Assembly: GCA_045601385.1 (NCBI GenBank)
Contig: JAZRZM010000049.1
Location: forward strand, 5,874 to 69,873
Length of the DNA: 64,000 nucleotides
Origin: Clostridia bacterium
GTDB lineage: Bacteria; Bacillota; Clostridia; Christensenellales; DTU072
Reading direction: 5' to 3'
The position numbers were made by a program, and so were the translations under genes. Shown one piece after another: positions 33,451 to 39,807 of the stretch (positions are counted from its first letter, which is position 1; each line of letters starts with the position of its first letter). The notes beneath the pieces were generated by a model. It was not told the origin of the DNA, did not search any database, and saw nothing but the letters and a program-made list of their open reading frames with translations.

Positions 33451-34863
33451 TTATTGGGGGTTCTTTTTGCGGTTGAACGGATCGTGAACCTTGTTGCCTT
33501 TGGGCAGGTGCGTGGGCAGTTTCTTAAAGCGGTTTCTGAACAGGAACGGTAAGATGAGCAGAAGTACGCACAGTACTGCGGGCAGCAAGTAGGTAAGGGA
33601 TAGTCCCACCGTCTGAATCGGTCCTTGTTCGGCGACGTCTTCGGCAAACTCGACGACCGCAAAAGCGTCCGCGCCGGACAGTCCGGTAAAGTATAACTTC
33701 AAAGCGGTGCCGAGGGCGGTTCCTTCGCACGAAGCAAGCGCGGGACAAATCATCGCCAGCGCGCTCATCAGTAGGGTAAACAGCGTCGTGCCGTGGATCC
33801 TTCTCGACGTATATGTAAACAGGCGGATAAGGTTCATTACAAACAGTACGATCGTCATCAGGAAAGCGACGATGGTAAACATAATCGTTCCGTATACGCC
33901 GATGTGGTTATAGATGACGCCGAAATCGTATTCGCCGTTTTCGTTCTTCTGAATTTTCAGATCGTCCGCTTTTGTTCCCGACAAAAATACCTGATAATAG
34001 ACGCTGTCGCCTTGGAAGAAAGGCAGATTCTCGATAAAGTCGATTCTCGTCTTGGCAAGCATCTTGGTCTTAAACCACGCTTTCACGATGTCGGCGGTGT
34101 CGATATAGAGCATCGTGCAACCGACGTCGCGGTACAAATCGACCGTCTCGGGTACTTGCGGATCGTCCGAATCCTCGGGATAAAACTCGAAAGGAACGCC
34201 GTCTTCTATTTCCCAGCCCGTCTCCGATATGTCGGCGTCATAAATGCCTCGAGGCCAGTTGCCGTCGTTGGGGATAATGAAGTGGGTGTAGTCGGCGGGA
34301 AAACCGTTTTCGTCCTCTTCTTCGGACAAAGGTCCGATGCGGTACATGACGAAAGTGCCGAAGTCGATGCCGATCGTGTCCGTTATCGTTTGGTTAATAT
34401 CTTTGGGGAAGAAAAAGCCGACGATGAAGCAGAGCGCAAGCAGCGCGGACAAAATCGTCATAATCAGCGGCAGAGCAAAGCCGTAGTATCTCTTTTTACG
34501 GAACGCCGACTCGTAGTCGAAGTCCATATTGTTATAACTGTTGTTATAGATCTTGCCGCCGCTGACCGAGGCGTAAGCGCGGGTGGAAAGCGTCTGCTCT
34601 TGCGACAAAGCCGCCGCCGCTTTCAGTTCGTTAAAAATAATATCGCCGTTATAAGAACCCGTTTCGACTTTTTTGAGCATGGCTTTATAGTGGTCTTTGT
34701 TCTTTTTCAGACGCGACCTTTCGTACGGTGTTTCACACTCGCGCAGAGCCACCGTCATTTCTTTGATTTTCCGACGAAGTAATTCCGCCAAAGCCACGTC
34801 GTCCTGTTCGTTCCACAGTTGCGACTTTCTGGCGTTTGCCACGTTGCGGACCTTAACTGCCAT
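33451..34863 (-). CDS. polytopic membrane protein of unknown function
   Basis: AGGAGG RBS. Charged helical ~130-aa N-terminus, then about 5 TM segments with a large acidic loop (residues ~170-330). No recognisable family. Confidence 0.6.
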   Translation of the reverse strand: MAVKVRNVANARKSQLWNEQDDVALAELLRRKIKEMTVALRECETPYERSRLKKNKDHYKAMLKKVETGSYNGDIIFNELKAAAALSQEQTLSTRAYASVSGGKIYNNSYNNMDFDYESAFRKKRYYGFALPLIMTILSALLALCFIVGFFFPKDINQTITDTIGIDFGTFVMYRIGPLSEEEDENGFPADYTHFIIPNDGNWPRGIYDADISETGWEIEDGVPFEFYPEDSDDPQVPETVDLYRDVGCTMLYIDTADIVKAWFKTKMLAKTRIDFIENLPFFQGDSVYYQVFLSGTKADDLKIQKNENGEYDFGVIYNHIGVYGTIMFTIVAFLMTIVLFVMNLIRLFTYTSRRIHGTTLFTLLMSALAMICPALASCEGTALGTALKLYFTGLSGADAFAVVEFAEDVAEQGPIQTVGLSLTYLLPAVLCVLLLILPFLFRNRFKKLPTHLPKGNKVHDPFNRKKNPQ

Positions 34864-34918
34864 GTTTTCCTCCTTGCTGTCAAGTCGACGAATCGAAATA
34901 ACATAGTTATACGCTTAT

Positions 34919-34947
34919 ATTATAATACTATATTCATTATTTTGCAA
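34919..34947 (-). promoter_or_regulatory. sigma-70-type promoter for the 33451..34863 gene
   Basis: On the minus strand: TTGCAA (34947-34942), 17-nt spacer, TATAAT (34924-34919), about 55 nt upstream of the ATG. Confidence 0.5.
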
Positions 34948-34980
34948 GAGGAAAAAATCACTTTTTCGGGAGCGGCGATA

Positions 34981-35336
34981 GCACTCTTTTTTACGTTCGC
35001 AAAAAAAATAATATATTATATAACATGCGTTATCGTCGGTTATCGAAAGAGGACAAAAATCATAGTTTTTGCGAACTTCCGCAAAAATTGCGAACGCAGT
35101 AGTCCGCTACAGCTGTCCTTATTTTCGCGGAAAAAAAGCGCACTCTTGCCGCTCCCCCGCACCGCACTCTTTTTTACGTTTGCAAAAACAAAAAATAATG
35201 CGGCGTACCATACGATATTATCGTTCGAAAAAGAGGATAAAAATCATAGTTTTTGCGAACTTCCGCAAAAATTGCGAACGCAGTAGTCCGCCACAGCAGT
35301 CCTTATTTTCGCGGAAAAAAAGCGCACTCTTGCCGC
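34981..35336. repeat. two tandem copies of a ~183-bp non-coding unit
   Basis: Units at 34981-35152 and 35164-35336. The 3' ~105 bp are near identical (..AAAATCATAGTTTTTGCGAACTTCCGCAAAAATTGCGAACGCAGTAGTCCGC.ACAGC.GTCCTTATTTTCGCGGAAAAAAAGCGCACTCTTGCCGC). The period is not a multiple of 3. Each unit holds a perfect 8-bp hairpin TTTTTGCG-AACTTC-CGCAAAAA (35066-35087 and 35249-35270). Confidence 0.85.
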
Positions 35337-35450
35337 ATCACTGCCGTAAGGCAATATAACTGCCGCAGGCAATATCACTGCCGCAAGGCAATATCACTGC
35401 CGTAAGGCAATATCACTCGCCGCAAGGCGAATATCGCTTCCCGAACGGCG
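35329..35450. repeat. array of 5-6 direct 18-21-bp units, each containing a short palindrome/mini-hairpin
   Basis: Units begin at 35341, 35360, 35378, 35397 and 35416: CTGCCGTAAGGCAATATAA / CTGCCGCAGGCAATATCA / CTGCCGCAAGGCAATATCA / CTGCCGTAAGGCAATATCA / CTCGCCGCAAGGCGAATATCG. A degenerate unit lies on each side. Stem TGCC/GGCA closes GTAA or GCAA (GNRA-type) loops. Confidence 0.85.
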
Positions 35451-35565: not shown

Positions 35566-35654
35566 CCACTATATCTTGTGCGTTAAAAAAAAATTACGAT
35601 AATTTCGTATATGTGACAAAATCACTATACAATTTATTTTTCCTATGGTATAAT
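35566..35654 (+). promoter_or_regulatory. nrdG-nrdD promoter with candidate NrdR boxes
   Basis: Extended -10 TGGTATAAT (35646-35654) and -35-like TATACA (35626-35631). CCACTATATCTTGTGC (35566-35581) matches the NrdR-box consensus acaCwAtATaTwGtgt, as I recall it, at 13/16. A weaker box TCACTATACAATTTAT (35622-35637, 11/16) overlaps the -35. Confidence 0.45.
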
Positions 35655-35686: not shown

Positions 35687-36373
35687 GTGGTAATAGCCGG
35701 TTTGCAAAAAATGACGTTGCTGGATTTCCCGGAGCGCGTCGCATGCACGGTTTTCACACCCGGATGCAATTTTCGTTGCCCGTTTTGCCATAACGCGAGC
35801 CTCGTGGACGTGAAAGAAATCGAAAAGACGGACGAAGAAGTCTTTTTTGCCTATCTTGCGAAGAGAAAAGGCGTCCTCGACGGCGTGGCGATTACGGGCG
35901 GAGAACCGACTTTGCAACCCGACCTGATTCCTTTTATAAGAAAGATAAAGGACGCGGGGCTTGCCGTCAAACTCGATACCAACGGTTCGCGTCCCGACGT
36001 CGTCAAGGCGATCGCCGCGGAAGGGCTGGTTGACTACTATGCGATGGACATCAAAAATTCGCCCGAAAAGTACGCTTTGACGGCAGGATGCGACGTCGAT
36101 ATGAAAAGCGTCAACGAAAGCATAGACTTTTTCCTCGGCTCGGACGTTTCGTACGAATTCAGGACGACCGTGGTGAAAGGGTTTCACGAGGAAGCCGATT
36201 TTACGGCGATCGGCAAACGGATCGCCGGAGCCAAACGGTACTTCTTGCAGAAGTTTACCGACAGCGGAGATATCCTGGGGCATACGGGAAGCGCCTTTTC
36301 GGATGAAGAAATGCGCGCTTTTGCGGAAATCGTGCGTCCCTATGTCCCGAGCGTGCAGACGAGAGGGATTTGA
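35687..36373 (+). CDS. nrdG: anaerobic ribonucleoside-triphosphate reductase activating protein (radical SAM)
   Basis: GTG start 7 nt after GGGGAGG. LLDFPERVACTVFTPGCNFRCPFCHN (CxxxCxxC). GVAITGGEPTLQPDL. Confidence 0.88.
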   Translation: MVIAGLQKMTLLDFPERVACTVFTPGCNFRCPFCHNASLVDVKEIEKTDEEVFFAYLAKRKGVLDGVAITGGEPTLQPDLIPFIRKIKDAGLAVKLDTNGSRPDVVKAIAAEGLVDYYAMDIKNSPEKYALTAGCDVDMKSVNESIDFFLGSDVSYEFRTTVVKGFHEEADFTAIGKRIAGAKRYFLQKFTDSGDILGHTGSAFSDEEMRAFAEIVRPYVPSVQTRGI

Positions 36374-36440: not shown

Positions 36441-38822
36441 ATGTATCAGGTAATAAAAAGAGACGGTAAAGTCGTAGAATTCGACATTGCAAAAATCGCC
36501 GCGGCGATTCAGTCGGCGTTTAACGGACAGAATAAGCAGACGCATCCGTCGGTCATCGATTTTCTTGCGCTTCGCGTTACAAGCGACTTCGAAAGCAAGA
36601 TAAAAGACGGCAAAATCGCCGTTGAAGACATACAGGACAGCGTCGAGTCCGTGCTTGTTCAGGCAGGCTATGCCGACGTGGCAAAAGCCTATATTCTGTA
36701 TCGTAAGCAACGGGAAAAGGTCCGTAACGTCAAAGCGAACATCCTTAACTACAAAGAACTCGTCGACAGTTACGTCAAGGTATCCGACTGGCGCGTGAAG
36801 GAAAACAGCACCGTCACTTATTCGGTCGGCGGCTTGATTCTTTCCAACTCCGGAGCCATCACCGCGAACTATTGGCTCAGCGAAATTTACGACGAAGAAA
36901 TCGCGGCGGCGCACAGAAACGCCGATATCCACTTGCACGACCTGAGTATGTTGACCGGGTATTGCGCCGGTTGGTCGCTCAAACAGCTTATCAAAGAAGG
37001 TCTCGGCGGCGTCACGGGCAAAATCACGTCCGCACCGGCAAAACATCTTTCCACCCTTTGCAATCAAATGGTCAACTTCCTCGGCATTATGCAAAACGAA
37101 TGGGCGGGCGCGCAAGCCTTCTCTTCGTTCGATACCTATCTTGCGCCTTTTGTAAAAATCGATAATCTTTCCTATTCCGAAGTCAAGCAGTGCGTCGAGA
37201 GTTTTATCTACGGCGTCAATACCCCGTCGAGATGGGGCACGCAAGCGCCTTTCTCCAATATAACACTCGACTGGACCGTCCCGAACGACCTTGCCGAACT
37301 GCCCGCGATCGTCGGCGGTAAAGAAATGGATTTTTGCTATAAAGATTGCAAAAAAGAAATGGACATGGTCAATAAGGCGTTTATCGAAATCATGATCGAA
37401 GGGGACGCCAACGGGCGCGGTTTCCAATATCCCATTCCGACTTATTCCATCACGCGCGACTTCGACTGGTCGGAGACCGAAAACAACCGCCTCTTGTTCG
37501 AGATGACGGCAAAATACGGCACGCCTTATTTCAGTAACTATATCAACAGCGATATGCAGCCGAGCGACGTCCGCAGTATGTGCTGTCGTCTCCGTCTCGA
37601 TTTGAGAGAACTTCGCAAAAAATCGGGCGGTTTCTTCGGAAGCGGCGAAAGCACGGGGAGCGTGGGCGTCGTCACGATCAATATGCCCCGTATCGCCTAC
37701 CTTGCCAAGGACGAAGAAGACTTTATGGCGCGTCTTGACAAACTCATGGACATCAGCGCGCGCAGTCTGAAAATCAAGCGTACCGTTATCACCAAACTGC
37801 TCGACAGCGGTCTGTATCCTTATACGAAACGCTATCTCGGCACTTTCAATAACCATTTCTCGACCATCGGTCTTATCGGTATGAACGAAGCCGGACTCAA
37901 TGCGAAATGGATCGGCAAGGATATGACGCACGTCGAAACGCAGGAGTTTACCAAACGCGTCCTCAATCATATGCGCGAGAGACTGAGCGATTATCAAGAA
38001 AAATACGGCGACTTGTACAACCTCGAAGCCACGCCTGCCGAATCGACGACGTATCGTCTCGCCAAGCACGACAAAGAGCGTTATCCCGATATCGTCACCG
38101 CGGCGAAAAACGACGGCGTACCGTATTATACCAATTCGTCACACCTCCCCGTCGGCTACACCGACGATATCTTCGAGGCGCTTGACATTCAGGACGAATT
38201 GCAGACGCTGTACACCTCCGGTACCGTTTTCCACGCTTTCATCGGCGAAAAAATGCCCACCTGGAAGAGCGCGGCGGATCTCGTGAGAAAAATCGCGCAG
38301 AATTACAAACTGCCTTACTATACCCTTTCCCCGACCTATTCCGTATGCAAAAACCACGGCTATATCGCGGGCGAAAAGTATACCTGCCCCGAGTGCGGCG
38401 AAACGACCGAAGTATACAGCCGTATCACCGGATATTATCGTCCCGTGCAGAACTGGAACGACGGCAAACGTCAGGAATACGCCGACCGTCTCGAATACAA
38501 TATCGCCACGAGCAAACTGAATAAAAACGAACGCGTGAAAAAAGAAGACGTATGCGCTTGCGACGACGCGGCTCCGTGCCAAAGCGGCGAGGCGGAACGT
38601 ATTCTTGTCGCTTCCAAGACTTGCCCGAATTGCAAACTTGCGGCGTCCGAACTTGACAAAGCGGGTATCCAATATAAGAAAATCTACGCGGAAGACGAAC
38701 CGCAGACCGTAAAGGACTTCGGCGTGCTTTCCGCTCCGACGCTCGTTATTTTACAAAATAACAAAATCGAAAAGATCGAGAACGTCAGCAACATTATCAA
38801 ATATATCCGCACCGGTAAATAA
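36441..38822 (+). CDS. nrdD: anaerobic (class III) ribonucleoside-triphosphate reductase with C-terminal thioredoxin-fold extension
   Basis: N-terminal ATP-cone (MYQVIKRDGKVVEFDIAKI), Zn site C..H...CPEC, and glycyl-radical motif YSRITGYYRPVQNW. After the normal C-terminus there are a further 107 aa (38499-38819) containing CPNC and a Trx/Grx-like beta-alpha pattern. Confidence 0.9.
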   Translation: MYQVIKRDGKVVEFDIAKIAAAIQSAFNGQNKQTHPSVIDFLALRVTSDFESKIKDGKIAVEDIQDSVESVLVQAGYADVAKAYILYRKQREKVRNVKANILNYKELVDSYVKVSDWRVKENSTVTYSVGGLILSNSGAITANYWLSEIYDEEIAAAHRNADIHLHDLSMLTGYCAGWSLKQLIKEGLGGVTGKITSAPAKHLSTLCNQMVNFLGIMQNEWAGAQAFSSFDTYLAPFVKIDNLSYSEVKQCVESFIYGVNTPSRWGTQAPFSNITLDWTVPNDLAELPAIVGGKEMDFCYKDCKKEMDMVNKAFIEIMIEGDANGRGFQYPIPTYSITRDFDWSETENNRLLFEMTAKYGTPYFSNYINSDMQPSDVRSMCCRLRLDLRELRKKSGGFFGSGESTGSVGVVTINMPRIAYLAKDEEDFMARLDKLMDISARSLKIKRTVITKLLDSGLYPYTKRYLGTFNNHFSTIGLIGMNEAGLNAKWIGKDMTHVETQEFTKRVLNHMRERLSDYQEKYGDLYNLEATPAESTTYRLAKHDKERYPDIVTAAKNDGVPYYTNSSHLPVGYTDDIFEALDIQDELQTLYTSGTVFHAFIGEKMPTWKSAADLVRKIAQNYKLPYYTLSPTYSVCKNHGYIAGEKYTCPECGETTEVYSRITGYYRPVQNWNDGKRQEYADRLEYNIATSKLNKNERVKKEDVCACDDAAPCQSGEAERILVASKTCPNCKLAASELDKAGIQYKKIYAEDEPQTVKDFGVLSAPTLVILQNNKIEKIENVSNIIKYIRTGK

Positions 38823-38827
38823 GACCT

Positions 38828-39748
38828 ATGACAAGAGATGTTATTGTAATCGGAGCCGGCGTCGCCGGAATGACCGCCGCGCTGTACGCCCTCCGCAACG
38901 GGAAAAGCGTCCTCGTGCTGGAAAAGGAATCGATCGGCGGACAGATAGCCACGTCCCCCCGCGTCGAGAACTTCCCCACCTTGCAGTCGATTGCCGGGAG
39001 CGAACTGTCCGACAAACTGTACGACCAAATCATGTCCCACGGCGCCGAGTTTGAGTTTGGCGGCGTGACCGAAGTAAGGAAGAACGGCGAAGGCGACTTT
39101 TCCGTCGTGACCGAGTACGGAGACGAGTTTTCCGCGCGTTCCGTCATTATCGCTTCGGGTGTGCATCATAAAAAAATACGTCTGCCGCGCGAAGACGAAC
39201 TGGTCGGCAAAGGTATATCCTACTGCGCCGTTTGCGACGGGGCGTTTTATAAAGGAAAAGACGTCGCTCTGATCGGCGACGGCAATACCGCCTTGCAGTA
39301 TTCTTTGCTCCTCAGTAATTATTGCAACAAAGTCTACGTTTGCACTTGGTTTGACAAGTTTTTCGGCGACGCGTCTTTGGTAAAGGCTCTGCGCGCTCGG
39401 GAGAACGTCACCGTTATTCCCGACTGCTGTTTGTCCGCTTTCGTGGCGGATGACCGTCTGACGGGACTTGATTTTAAGTACCGCGAGAAAGAGGGCGGTT
39501 TCCGTCTCGACGTGGAAGGTTGTTTTATCGCTATCGGACAGGTGCCGGATAACAAGCCGTTTGAAAACCTGACCGACCTTGACAAAGACGGCTATATTGT
39601 CGCCGACGAGTCTTGCCGTACCCGTACCGACGGTTTGTTCGTCGCGGGCGACTGCCGTACGAAAAAAGTCCGTCAGTGTACCACCGCCGCCGCCGACGGC
39701 GCATGCGCCGCCGTCGCCGCGGCAAGTTATATCGACGCGTTATTATAA
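38828..39748 (+). CDS. trxB: thioredoxin-disulfide reductase family flavoprotein
   Basis: FAD motif VIVIGAGVAGMTAA, redox-active CAVC (YCAVCDGAFY), second dinucleotide motif LIGDGNTALQ, and C-terminal GLFVAGDC. Starts 5 nt after the nrdD stop. Confidence 0.85.
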   Translation: MTRDVIVIGAGVAGMTAALYALRNGKSVLVLEKESIGGQIATSPRVENFPTLQSIAGSELSDKLYDQIMSHGAEFEFGGVTEVRKNGEGDFSVVTEYGDEFSARSVIIASGVHHKKIRLPREDELVGKGISYCAVCDGAFYKGKDVALIGDGNTALQYSLLLSNYCNKVYVCTWFDKFFGDASLVKALRARENVTVIPDCCLSAFVADDRLTGLDFKYREKEGGFRLDVEGCFIAIGQVPDNKPFENLTDLDKDGYIVADESCRTRTDGLFVAGDCRTKKVRQCTTAAADGACAAVAAASYIDALL

Positions 39749-39763
39749 AATCCGTTATCGTAT

Positions 39764-39807
39764 AAAAAAACAGCCTCCGTCAAAAAAACGGGGGCTGTTT
39801 TTGTTTT
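39764..39807. terminator. bidirectional rho-independent terminator (trxB / convergent methyltransferase)
   Basis: A-run, stem CAGCCTCCG (39771-39779) / CGGGGGCTG (39789-39797, one G-U), then a T-run. Confidence 0.8.

Follow-up and report, generated by a model that had tools for sequence, protein, structure and literature searches.

A class III ribonucleotide reductase with a C-terminal redoxin domain and a linked TrxB-type reductase in a Clostridia genome

The nrdG–nrdD–trxB locus and the active site of NrdD

We analyzed a 64,000-nt stretch of contig JAZRZM010000049.1 (assembly GCA_045601385.1, positions 5,874 to 69,873, forward strand) from a Clostridia bacterium, referred to here as the window. 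It contains a plus-strand run of three genes: nrdG, an nrdD gene for a class III ribonucleotide reductase (RNR) extended at its C-terminus by a redoxin domain, and a gene for a TrxB-type flavin disulfide reductase. The features of the locus, in window coordinates, are as follows.

35567..35580, no strand: NrdR-box-like palindrome, matching the consensus at 13/14 positions
35626..35654, plus strand: sigma70-like promoter (TATACA-17-TATAAT, extended -10), called solely by its pattern
35687..36373, plus strand: nrdG, radical-SAM activase of the NrdG2 type, 228 aa (TIGR02495, 207.8 bits; cut-off 131)
36441..38822, plus strand: nrdD::redoxin, class III RNR, 793 aa (NF006126/PRK08270, 1143 bits, cut-off 548; TIGR02487 above cut-off)
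38828..39748, plus strand: TrxB-type flavin disulfide reductase, 306 aa (TIGR01292, 296 bits, below the cut-off of 343)
39766..39802, plus strand: intrinsic-terminator-like hairpin of 15 pairs, with trxB on one side and a methyltransferase gene in convergent orientation on the other

The nrdD open reading frame (ORF) is unbroken, and the Pfam NRDD domain covers residues 121–686, which confirms the statement in a preliminary description of this DNA that NrdD continues for 107 aa beyond its usual end. The profile score, glycyl-radical motif, Zn site, and adjoining NrdG identify the protein as a class III RNR of the PRK08270 group. The trxB gene starts 5 nt past the nrdD stop codon, also as first described, and its product carries a CAVC motif. 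From gene layout solely, we infer that the three genes are co-transcribed. The catalytic core has the following features.

36447..36716, plus strand: ATP-cone, residues 3–92 (PF03477, E = 1.6e-24)
36963..36965, plus strand: C175, beta-A cysteine (Thermotoga maritima C125), aligned to 4coi and invariant in 40/40 sequences
37578..37589, plus strand: finger loop M380-C381-C382-R383 (SCCR in T. maritima), from the 4coi alignment
38025..38027, plus strand: E529, active-site glutamate (T. maritima E495), from the 4coi alignment and present in 71/71 rows
38346..38432, plus strand: Zn site C636/H639/C649/C652 and glycyl-radical residue G664, read from the sequence and invariant in the alignment

In the alignment to T. 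maritima NrdD (4coi), C175, C381–C382, E529, and G664 corresponded to C125, C329–C330, E495, and G621, respectively. SMCCRL was found in 38/38 fused and 33/33 unfused rows, which had themselves been selected on SMCCR. The Cys pair plus Glu agrees with the definition of NrdD2 (Wei et al., as summarized in PMC4493059), in which a third Cys and the active-site Glu are required and a Met is allowed. The window NrdD differs from the thioredoxin-only subclade, which has the Glu and no finger-loop Met, in having M380 in place of Ser; from the formate-type NrdD1, which has a single-Cys MGCR loop and no Glu; and from NrdD3, whose loop is QCCR/A and which lacks both the Met and the Glu. The MCCR loop, together with a Phe in the place of I359, is in line with NrdDh4, whereas a fusion from Lachnospiraceae bacterium TWA4 is labelled NrdDd in PMC6187632. 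MCCR accounts for 83% of double-Cys class III RNRs and provides the parts for a formate or a thioredoxin route, and which of the two these enzymes use is described as an open question (PMC9669993); the characterized redoxin-using NrdDs have SCCR or QCCR. Because the finger-loop Met is kept, the residue check proposed in the preliminary description cannot separate the two routes: C175, C381–C382, and E529 of the redoxin-dependent type are present, but so is the Met of the formate type.

This ambiguity bears on one alternative, which we regard as unlikely, namely that formate is the catalytic reductant through a C175–M380 thiosulfuranyl route and that the redoxin and TrxB serve in Cys maintenance, activation, or oxygen repair. 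Retention of M380 is consistent with it, whereas the conserved second finger-loop Cys and E529 are not, as single-Cys formate enzymes lack both. The genome content points in both directions. In the window's own genome (95.8% complete), the window NrdD is the only RNR found (one PF13597 match and no PF02867 match), and canonical pyruvate formate-lyase (PFL) was not found, both of which argue against formate; Fhs, which could favor it, is present, as are pyruvate:ferredoxin oxidoreductase (PFOR) and small ferredoxin-like ORFs. The one glycyl-radical enzyme scored 69 bits against the 994-bit PFL cut-off; a 723-aa glycyl-radical enzyme encoded with an activase in this genome (L002:37-3059) reached the threshold of no named family. 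In the survey of the class described below, PFL was present in 21/34 genomes with the fusion and is therefore not depleted there, compared with 59/88 genomes without this NrdD type and 8/26 with only an unfused relative, although the 13/34 fused genomes with no PFL match count against formate. These PFL counts do not support the idea that the fusion arose as an answer to formate shortage (the Fisher tests used ignore kinship). An activating role of thioredoxin reported for Escherichia coli NrdD (PMC4390871) would fit an accessory function of the redoxin, as would the desulfoferrodoxin (superoxide reductase) and ferritin genes that follow the fused nrdD, in the place of trxB, at two loci (L042, L049).

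With regard to regulation, NrdR-like boxes (score of at least 12) lay upstream in 15/20 relatives' loci versus 6/400 shuffles, often with a second box 31–33 nt from the first, and nrdR is present in the window's own genome. Across this region 8 sites matched the promoter consensus, against a mean of 3.6 in shuffles, and the promoter-like site ahead of nrdG was the best of them. Farther upstream of nrdG, positions 34819–35359 hold a seemingly duplicated segment in which similar translated motifs occur twice.

Fold, conservation, and distribution of the fused redoxin domain

The 107-aa tail past residue 686 (38499–38819) holds the motifs CACDDAAPC and TCPNCK and was divided as follows.

38499..38591, plus strand: flexible linker, some 31 aa long and containing 3 Cys (predicted local distance difference test score, pLDDT, below 50 at residues 696–717)
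38592..38819, plus strand: NrdH/glutaredoxin-like domain, residues 718–793, assigned by its fold and invariant CxxC and Pro
38622-38633, plus strand: C728-P-N-C731, active site of the redoxin domain
38736-38738, plus strand: P766, conserved Pro of the redoxin domain

When the tail alone was searched, Thioredoxin (PF00085) scored 24.6 bits, above its cut-off of 23.5, and Glutaredoxin (PF00462) scored 18.2 bits, below its cut-off of 22.9. The domain model, built from a 61-row alignment, had a pLDDT of 96 and a minimal thioredoxin fold (beta-alpha-beta-alpha-beta-beta-alpha) with four strands, a helix 1 that begins with the CxxC, and the Pro before strand 3. Thus, the Trx/Grx-like domain read from TCPNCK in the preliminary description is borne out, and the failure to model as a Trx fold that it had named as damaging to its proposal did not occur. 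Foldseek returned chiefly thioredoxins, while in a wide structure search the N-domains of glutathione S-transferases, the Trx-like 3zij, and E. coli NrdH (1h75) tied at Z 10–11 (for 1h75, Z 10.1, root-mean-square deviation 2.0, 70 aligned residues). As modelled, the domain clearly has a Trx/NrdH fold, and these ties point to no single subfamily. It does not qualify as a glutaredoxin proper, given the sub-cut-off PF00462 score and the absence of a gshF/gshA-like match (TIGR01435) in the genome; the latter favors TrxB rather than glutathione as the route.

Both Cys and the Pro were invariant in 61/61 rows, which were chosen by the CxxC pattern; the CxxC was also kept in 34/34 fused loci of the class sample, which were found with a mostly-core query and independently of that pattern. 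CPNC occurred in 120/120 among the matches listed for the C-terminal region, as expected given that query. The dN/dS of the domain was 0.093 over 23 disjoint pairs (all ≤0.20), compared with 0.040 for the NrdD core, and the domain is in the NrdD frame in 54/55 loci of other genomes, the remaining locus being cut by a contig end. These results indicate that the redoxin domain is under purifying selection and that the fusion is neither chance nor misassembly.

The linker is less constrained. Its length ranged from 16 to 57 aa, and in the class sample 13/31 linkers had no Cys and 9/31 had two or more (3/34 fused loci were missed by the pattern). Therefore, although the CACDDAAPC segment emphasized in the preliminary description is present, its Cys residues are not conserved and are dispensable, and a class I-like shuttle through the linker is not essential, as linkers without Cys made up 13/31, 5/22, and 17/53 of three sets. 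Linkers are nonetheless enriched in Cys (4–5% vs 1.6%), with CxC, CC, and CCCC runs. A search for free-standing copies of the domain yielded mostly fusion fragments (66 short matches and 13/150 representatives inspected). P0183 and P0184 may be free copies, and P0188 is a 309-aa fragment with two CPNC domain copies among short repeated linkers.

Genomes were drawn evenly from the class, and 149 genomes of at least 90% completeness were scored at a match threshold of E 1e-60. Of these, 34 had the fusion, 26 only an unfused relative, 1 a partial match, and 88 no match; in a draw from the phylum, the fusion was found in 13/200. Among carriers with names, metagenome-assembled genomes of Clostridia from gut and rumen prevail, and Anaeroplasma bactoclasticum and Fibrobacter also occur. 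A trxB gene was adjacent in 18/34 fused versus 0/29 unfused loci of the class sample (with some 1.5 kb of flanking sequence at 29 of the fused loci, some 3.5 kb at the others, and less near contig ends), in 21/22 of the fused loci that are complete in close relatives, and downstream in 50/55 further loci. The fused clade was probably missed earlier because its domain often falls below the Pfam cut-off.

In a 71-row tree of the NrdD core, which was rooted at its midpoint only and from which the frameshifted L155 was left out, the 38 fused rows stood together with a single unfused one on one side of a long branch (Shimodaira–Hasegawa-like approximate likelihood ratio test, SH-aLRT, 100). A fused-only clade was compatible with the approximately unbiased (AU) test (p 0.48), so loss of the domain in L118 is not established. 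The locus left out (L155:3564-5645) holds a close unfused nrdD relative that is broken up among three reading frames, whether as a pseudogene or through faulty assembly. Three genomes carry both fused and unfused MCCR-type NrdD (L123/L147, L125/L148, L131/L149), and fused loci mostly have the order nrdG–nrdD, unfused loci nrdD–nrdG. At one unfused MCCR locus, a free CHYC glutaredoxin gene lies directly upstream of nrdD (L127:5956-6183, minus strand), its product sharing 25% identity with the fused domain over 55 aa. Furthermore, an unverified "bacteriophage" record (MT835493.1; L186:1025-5344) contains the whole nrdG–nrdD::redoxin–trxB unit near an integrase-like ORF; this record may be bacterial DNA.

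The TrxB-type reductase and its electron donor

Three sites of the TrxB-type protein are relevant to its electron donor.

39224-39235, plus strand: CAVC redox motif, read from the sequence
39275-39292, plus strand: degenerate pyrophosphate motif GDGNTA (for GGGxxA), from the alignment to solved TrxBs
39344-39355, plus strand: TWFD in the HRRD position, from the same alignment

The FAD motif GAGVAG, CAVC, and the Trx-binding GKG identify a disulfide reductase of the NADPH thioredoxin reductase (NTR) fold. By score, its closest solved relatives are ordinary TrxBs (209 bits, vs 118 bits for 6gna/6gnc, clostridial flavin thioredoxin reductases that depend on ferredoxin, FFTRs), yet its NAD(P)H motifs are absent; an FFTR would, besides lacking these motifs, cluster with FFTRs and be reduced by ferredoxin. 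The NADPH signatures of thioredoxin reductases are GGGxxAxE and HRRDxxR (PMC5627308), and in the window TrxB these are replaced by GDGNTALQ and TWFDKFFG; by the criterion of PMC10880999 it would also be a non-NTR. With both motifs replaced, NADPH is unlikely as the donor. The TQ/NGK motif of the TRi reductases is likewise missing, its place being taken by TWFD. Neither NADH nor NADPH can reduce Desulfovibrio vulgaris TRi, whose motifs are GEG and TQGK (PMC5627308), and T. maritima TrxR is reported to prefer NADH. The acidic residue in the pyrophosphate motif combined with HRR loss is the D. vulgaris TRi pattern, and we count it in favor of a non-NADPH donor. We judge reduced ferredoxin or flavodoxin to have somewhat better than an even chance of being the donor, NADH a smaller but real one, and NADPH little.

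Motif loss is common among the linked reductases. Of 80 distinct motif stretches from linked TrxBs, 12 keep HRR and 68 lack it. Across 80 loci with all three parts, 26 TrxBs are of GDx/TxFD type, 42 of GGG/Q[ND] type, and 12 of HRR type. The Q[ND] subtype, the sister of the window subtype, has QNL in common with PDB 7jyp and occurs in a cultured carrier of the fusion, A. bactoclasticum ATCC 27112 (L071). In a 50-row TrxB tree, 22 HRR-less linked rows formed one clade (SH-aLRT 95), 8 linked HRR rows fell outside it, and 18/20 unlinked TrxBs, which were hand-picked, kept HRR. A single clade of all adjacent TrxBs had a support of only 26, and the HRR-less subset alone is supported. Fused genomes hold four further non-adjacent TrxBs that either resemble TRi or lack HRR in another way, and three fused genomes with no adjacent trxB have TRi-like reductases (TNGK/R/Q motif) elsewhere (L181, L182, L183).

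These data weigh against the self-contained chain from NADPH through TrxB and the fused redoxin to NrdD that the preliminary description put forward, in which NAD(P)H alone would suffice for the unit. The similarity to ordinary TrxBs is in keeping with such a chain, and the HRR-keeping minority suggests that it is likely valid for some relatives and may be ancestral; for the window TrxB itself, the replaced motifs leave NADPH improbable and NADH uncertain, and we give this version the lowest weight of the readings considered. A further alternative, which we also doubt, is that the domain reduces NrdD but is itself recycled by a ferredoxin:thioredoxin reductase (FTR)-like protein with ferredoxin, or by free thioredoxin, with TrxB as a general reductase. 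In its favor, the window TrxB is the only one found in the genome, in which a free WCGPC thioredoxin (TrxA) also occurs; against it, 5/18 adjacent-type genomes hold a second TrxB elsewhere, and the HRR-less linked TrxBs have a supported clade to themselves. A candidate recycler is encoded outside the window in the same genome: a 65-aa minimal FTR-like protein with CPC/CMC/CHC motifs (L185:1516-1710, minus strand), scoring 28.9 bits against PF02943 (cut-off 22) and flanked by an aminopeptidase gene on one side and a long ORF on the other. PF02943 was not found, however, in 4/4 other fused genomes tested. The moderate correlation of domain and TrxB distances (rho 0.40, compared with 0.45 for core and TrxB) would suit this alternative, as would the 16/34 fused loci with no adjacent trxB.

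A proposed electron route and its relation to known systems

What is directly established here is the anatomy, the residues, the fold, the conservation, the linkage of the genes, and the loss of motifs; from these we infer a route in which electrons would reach the active-site disulfide of NrdD from the tethered CPNC domain, and this domain from the linked TrxB with a non-NADPH donor; we favor it with reasonable, though not high, confidence. NrdG would set the G664 radical, as is established for the family, and a finger-loop thiyl radical would begin the reaction, with E529 as acid/base. By analogy with Neisseria bacilliformis, C175 and one Cys of C381/C382 would give two electrons and become a disulfide. 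This would be re-reduced by the CPNC domain on its flexible linker, in cis or across the dimer, and the CPNC domain in turn by the TrxB-type flavoenzyme, for which the electrons would most likely come from reduced ferredoxin or flavodoxin or from NADH. The tethered redoxin probably lets NrdD use protein thiols rather than formate, with formate as a possible second route through M380. The route is supported by the Cys pair and Glu, the Trx/NrdH fold, the kept CxxC, purifying selection, and trxB linkage; we also count as support the free glutaredoxin beside the unfused nrdD of L127 and the combination of PFOR and small ferredoxins with no canonical PFL found in the genome. In this respect, the thiol-dependent NrdD with fused redoxin and trxB of the preliminary description stands in its residues, fold, and operon layout, with the qualification that M380 is also present.

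Several points weigh against this route. As M380 is kept, formate may still serve as a second donor, and PFL in 21 of the fused genomes argues against a simple replacement of formate. With a sole TrxB and a free thioredoxin in the genome, TrxB may be a housekeeping enzyme, and the 65-aa FTR-like protein is an alternative candidate reductase. The fused loci with no adjacent trxB and the linked TrxBs that retain HRR also count here, and the fusion arose about once, so the adjacency counts reflect one inherited event rather than independent ones. Furthermore, the full-length model (pLDDT 63 at the active site and below 50 at residues 355–406) is too poor to show docking.

More speculatively, and with less confidence than in the route itself, about one-quarter of the sampled class genomes (34/149) and some Anaeroplasma and Fibrobacter might make deoxyribonucleoside triphosphates via a dedicated three-gene module, in which the tethered redoxin re-reduces an MCCR NrdD and NADPH has been given up by a TrxB lineage that is inherited along with it and apparently has no name, in the window subtype in favor of ferredoxin or flavodoxin. 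If so, low-potential electrons from PFOR would feed straight into DNA-precursor synthesis, and the large MCCR group would be redoxin-driven or would switch between formate and thiols. The locus places a candidate reductant on the same chain as an MCCR NrdD, the only RNR found in its genome, with the reductase as the next gene; it adds a TrxB lineage with a probably altered electron donor, and this altered reductase is the most informative feature.

The preliminary description knew of no characterized example of the fusion. We likewise found no biochemical study; the fusion itself is listed once, as a grx::nrdD in the 2018 survey PMC6187632, the only report found, although earlier NrdD papers could mention it. 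What was listed once plausibly represents a widespread clade. The C-terminal fusion clade and its TrxB are not described in the available portions of PMC9669993, PMC4493059, PMC5627308, PMC4390871, PMC9176816, PMC10880999, PMC9025218, PMC8395237, PMC5704485, PMC12288474, and bioRxiv 2022.04.23.489257.

Among known systems, the NrdD2 enzymes of N. bacilliformis and T. maritima align with the window NrdD at the beta-A Cys, at both Cys of the finger loop, and at the active-site Glu; they differ in that the window NrdD has MCCR rather than SCCR, an ATP-cone, a fused redoxin, and a linked TrxB without NADPH motifs, and it is only distantly similar to 4coi (E 4e-39). For Methanosarcina barkeri NrdD3, the likeness lies in a small NrdH-like redoxin and a probably non-NADPH donor, acting through ferredoxin:disulfide reductase (PMC9176816). 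Its redoxin, too, is tied to the RNR locus. By contrast, the NrdD3 loop is QCCR/A without Met or Glu (PMC9669993), the redoxin is a separate protein, and the reductase is an Fe-S protein rather than a flavoprotein. The protein reductant of T. maritima NrdD is not identified in PMC4493059. Lachnospiraceae bacterium TWA4 grx::nrdD (WP_082039398.1, NrdDd) has a Grx domain in NrdD and is plausibly a member of the fused clade; its entry is one row of Table S1 in PMC6187632, which gives neither an experiment nor a domain order nor a trxB, and the table labels do not show domain order, F. ignava also being out of order. In Facklamia ignava Grx::ATP-cone::NrdB, a fused Grx was shown to be a working RNR reductant; unlike the present case, this is a class I enzyme with an N-terminal redoxin on the radical subunit, in an organism that has gshF (PMC6187632). 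The low-molecular-weight thioredoxin reductases that are NAD(P)H-independent or of NADH type (D. vulgaris TRi, clostridial FFTR, and T. maritima TrxR) resemble the window TrxB in keeping CxxC and the Trx-binding GKG while losing HRR, and D. vulgaris TRi shares the acidic residue in the pyrophosphate motif of the window TrxB. The motif here, however, is TWFD/TLFD rather than TQ/NGK, and the window TrxB gives lower scores with 5nii and with 6gna/6gnc than it does with ordinary TrxBs. Redoxin-driven NrdD and redoxin–RNR fusions therefore both have precedent, and the present finding extends known chemistry.

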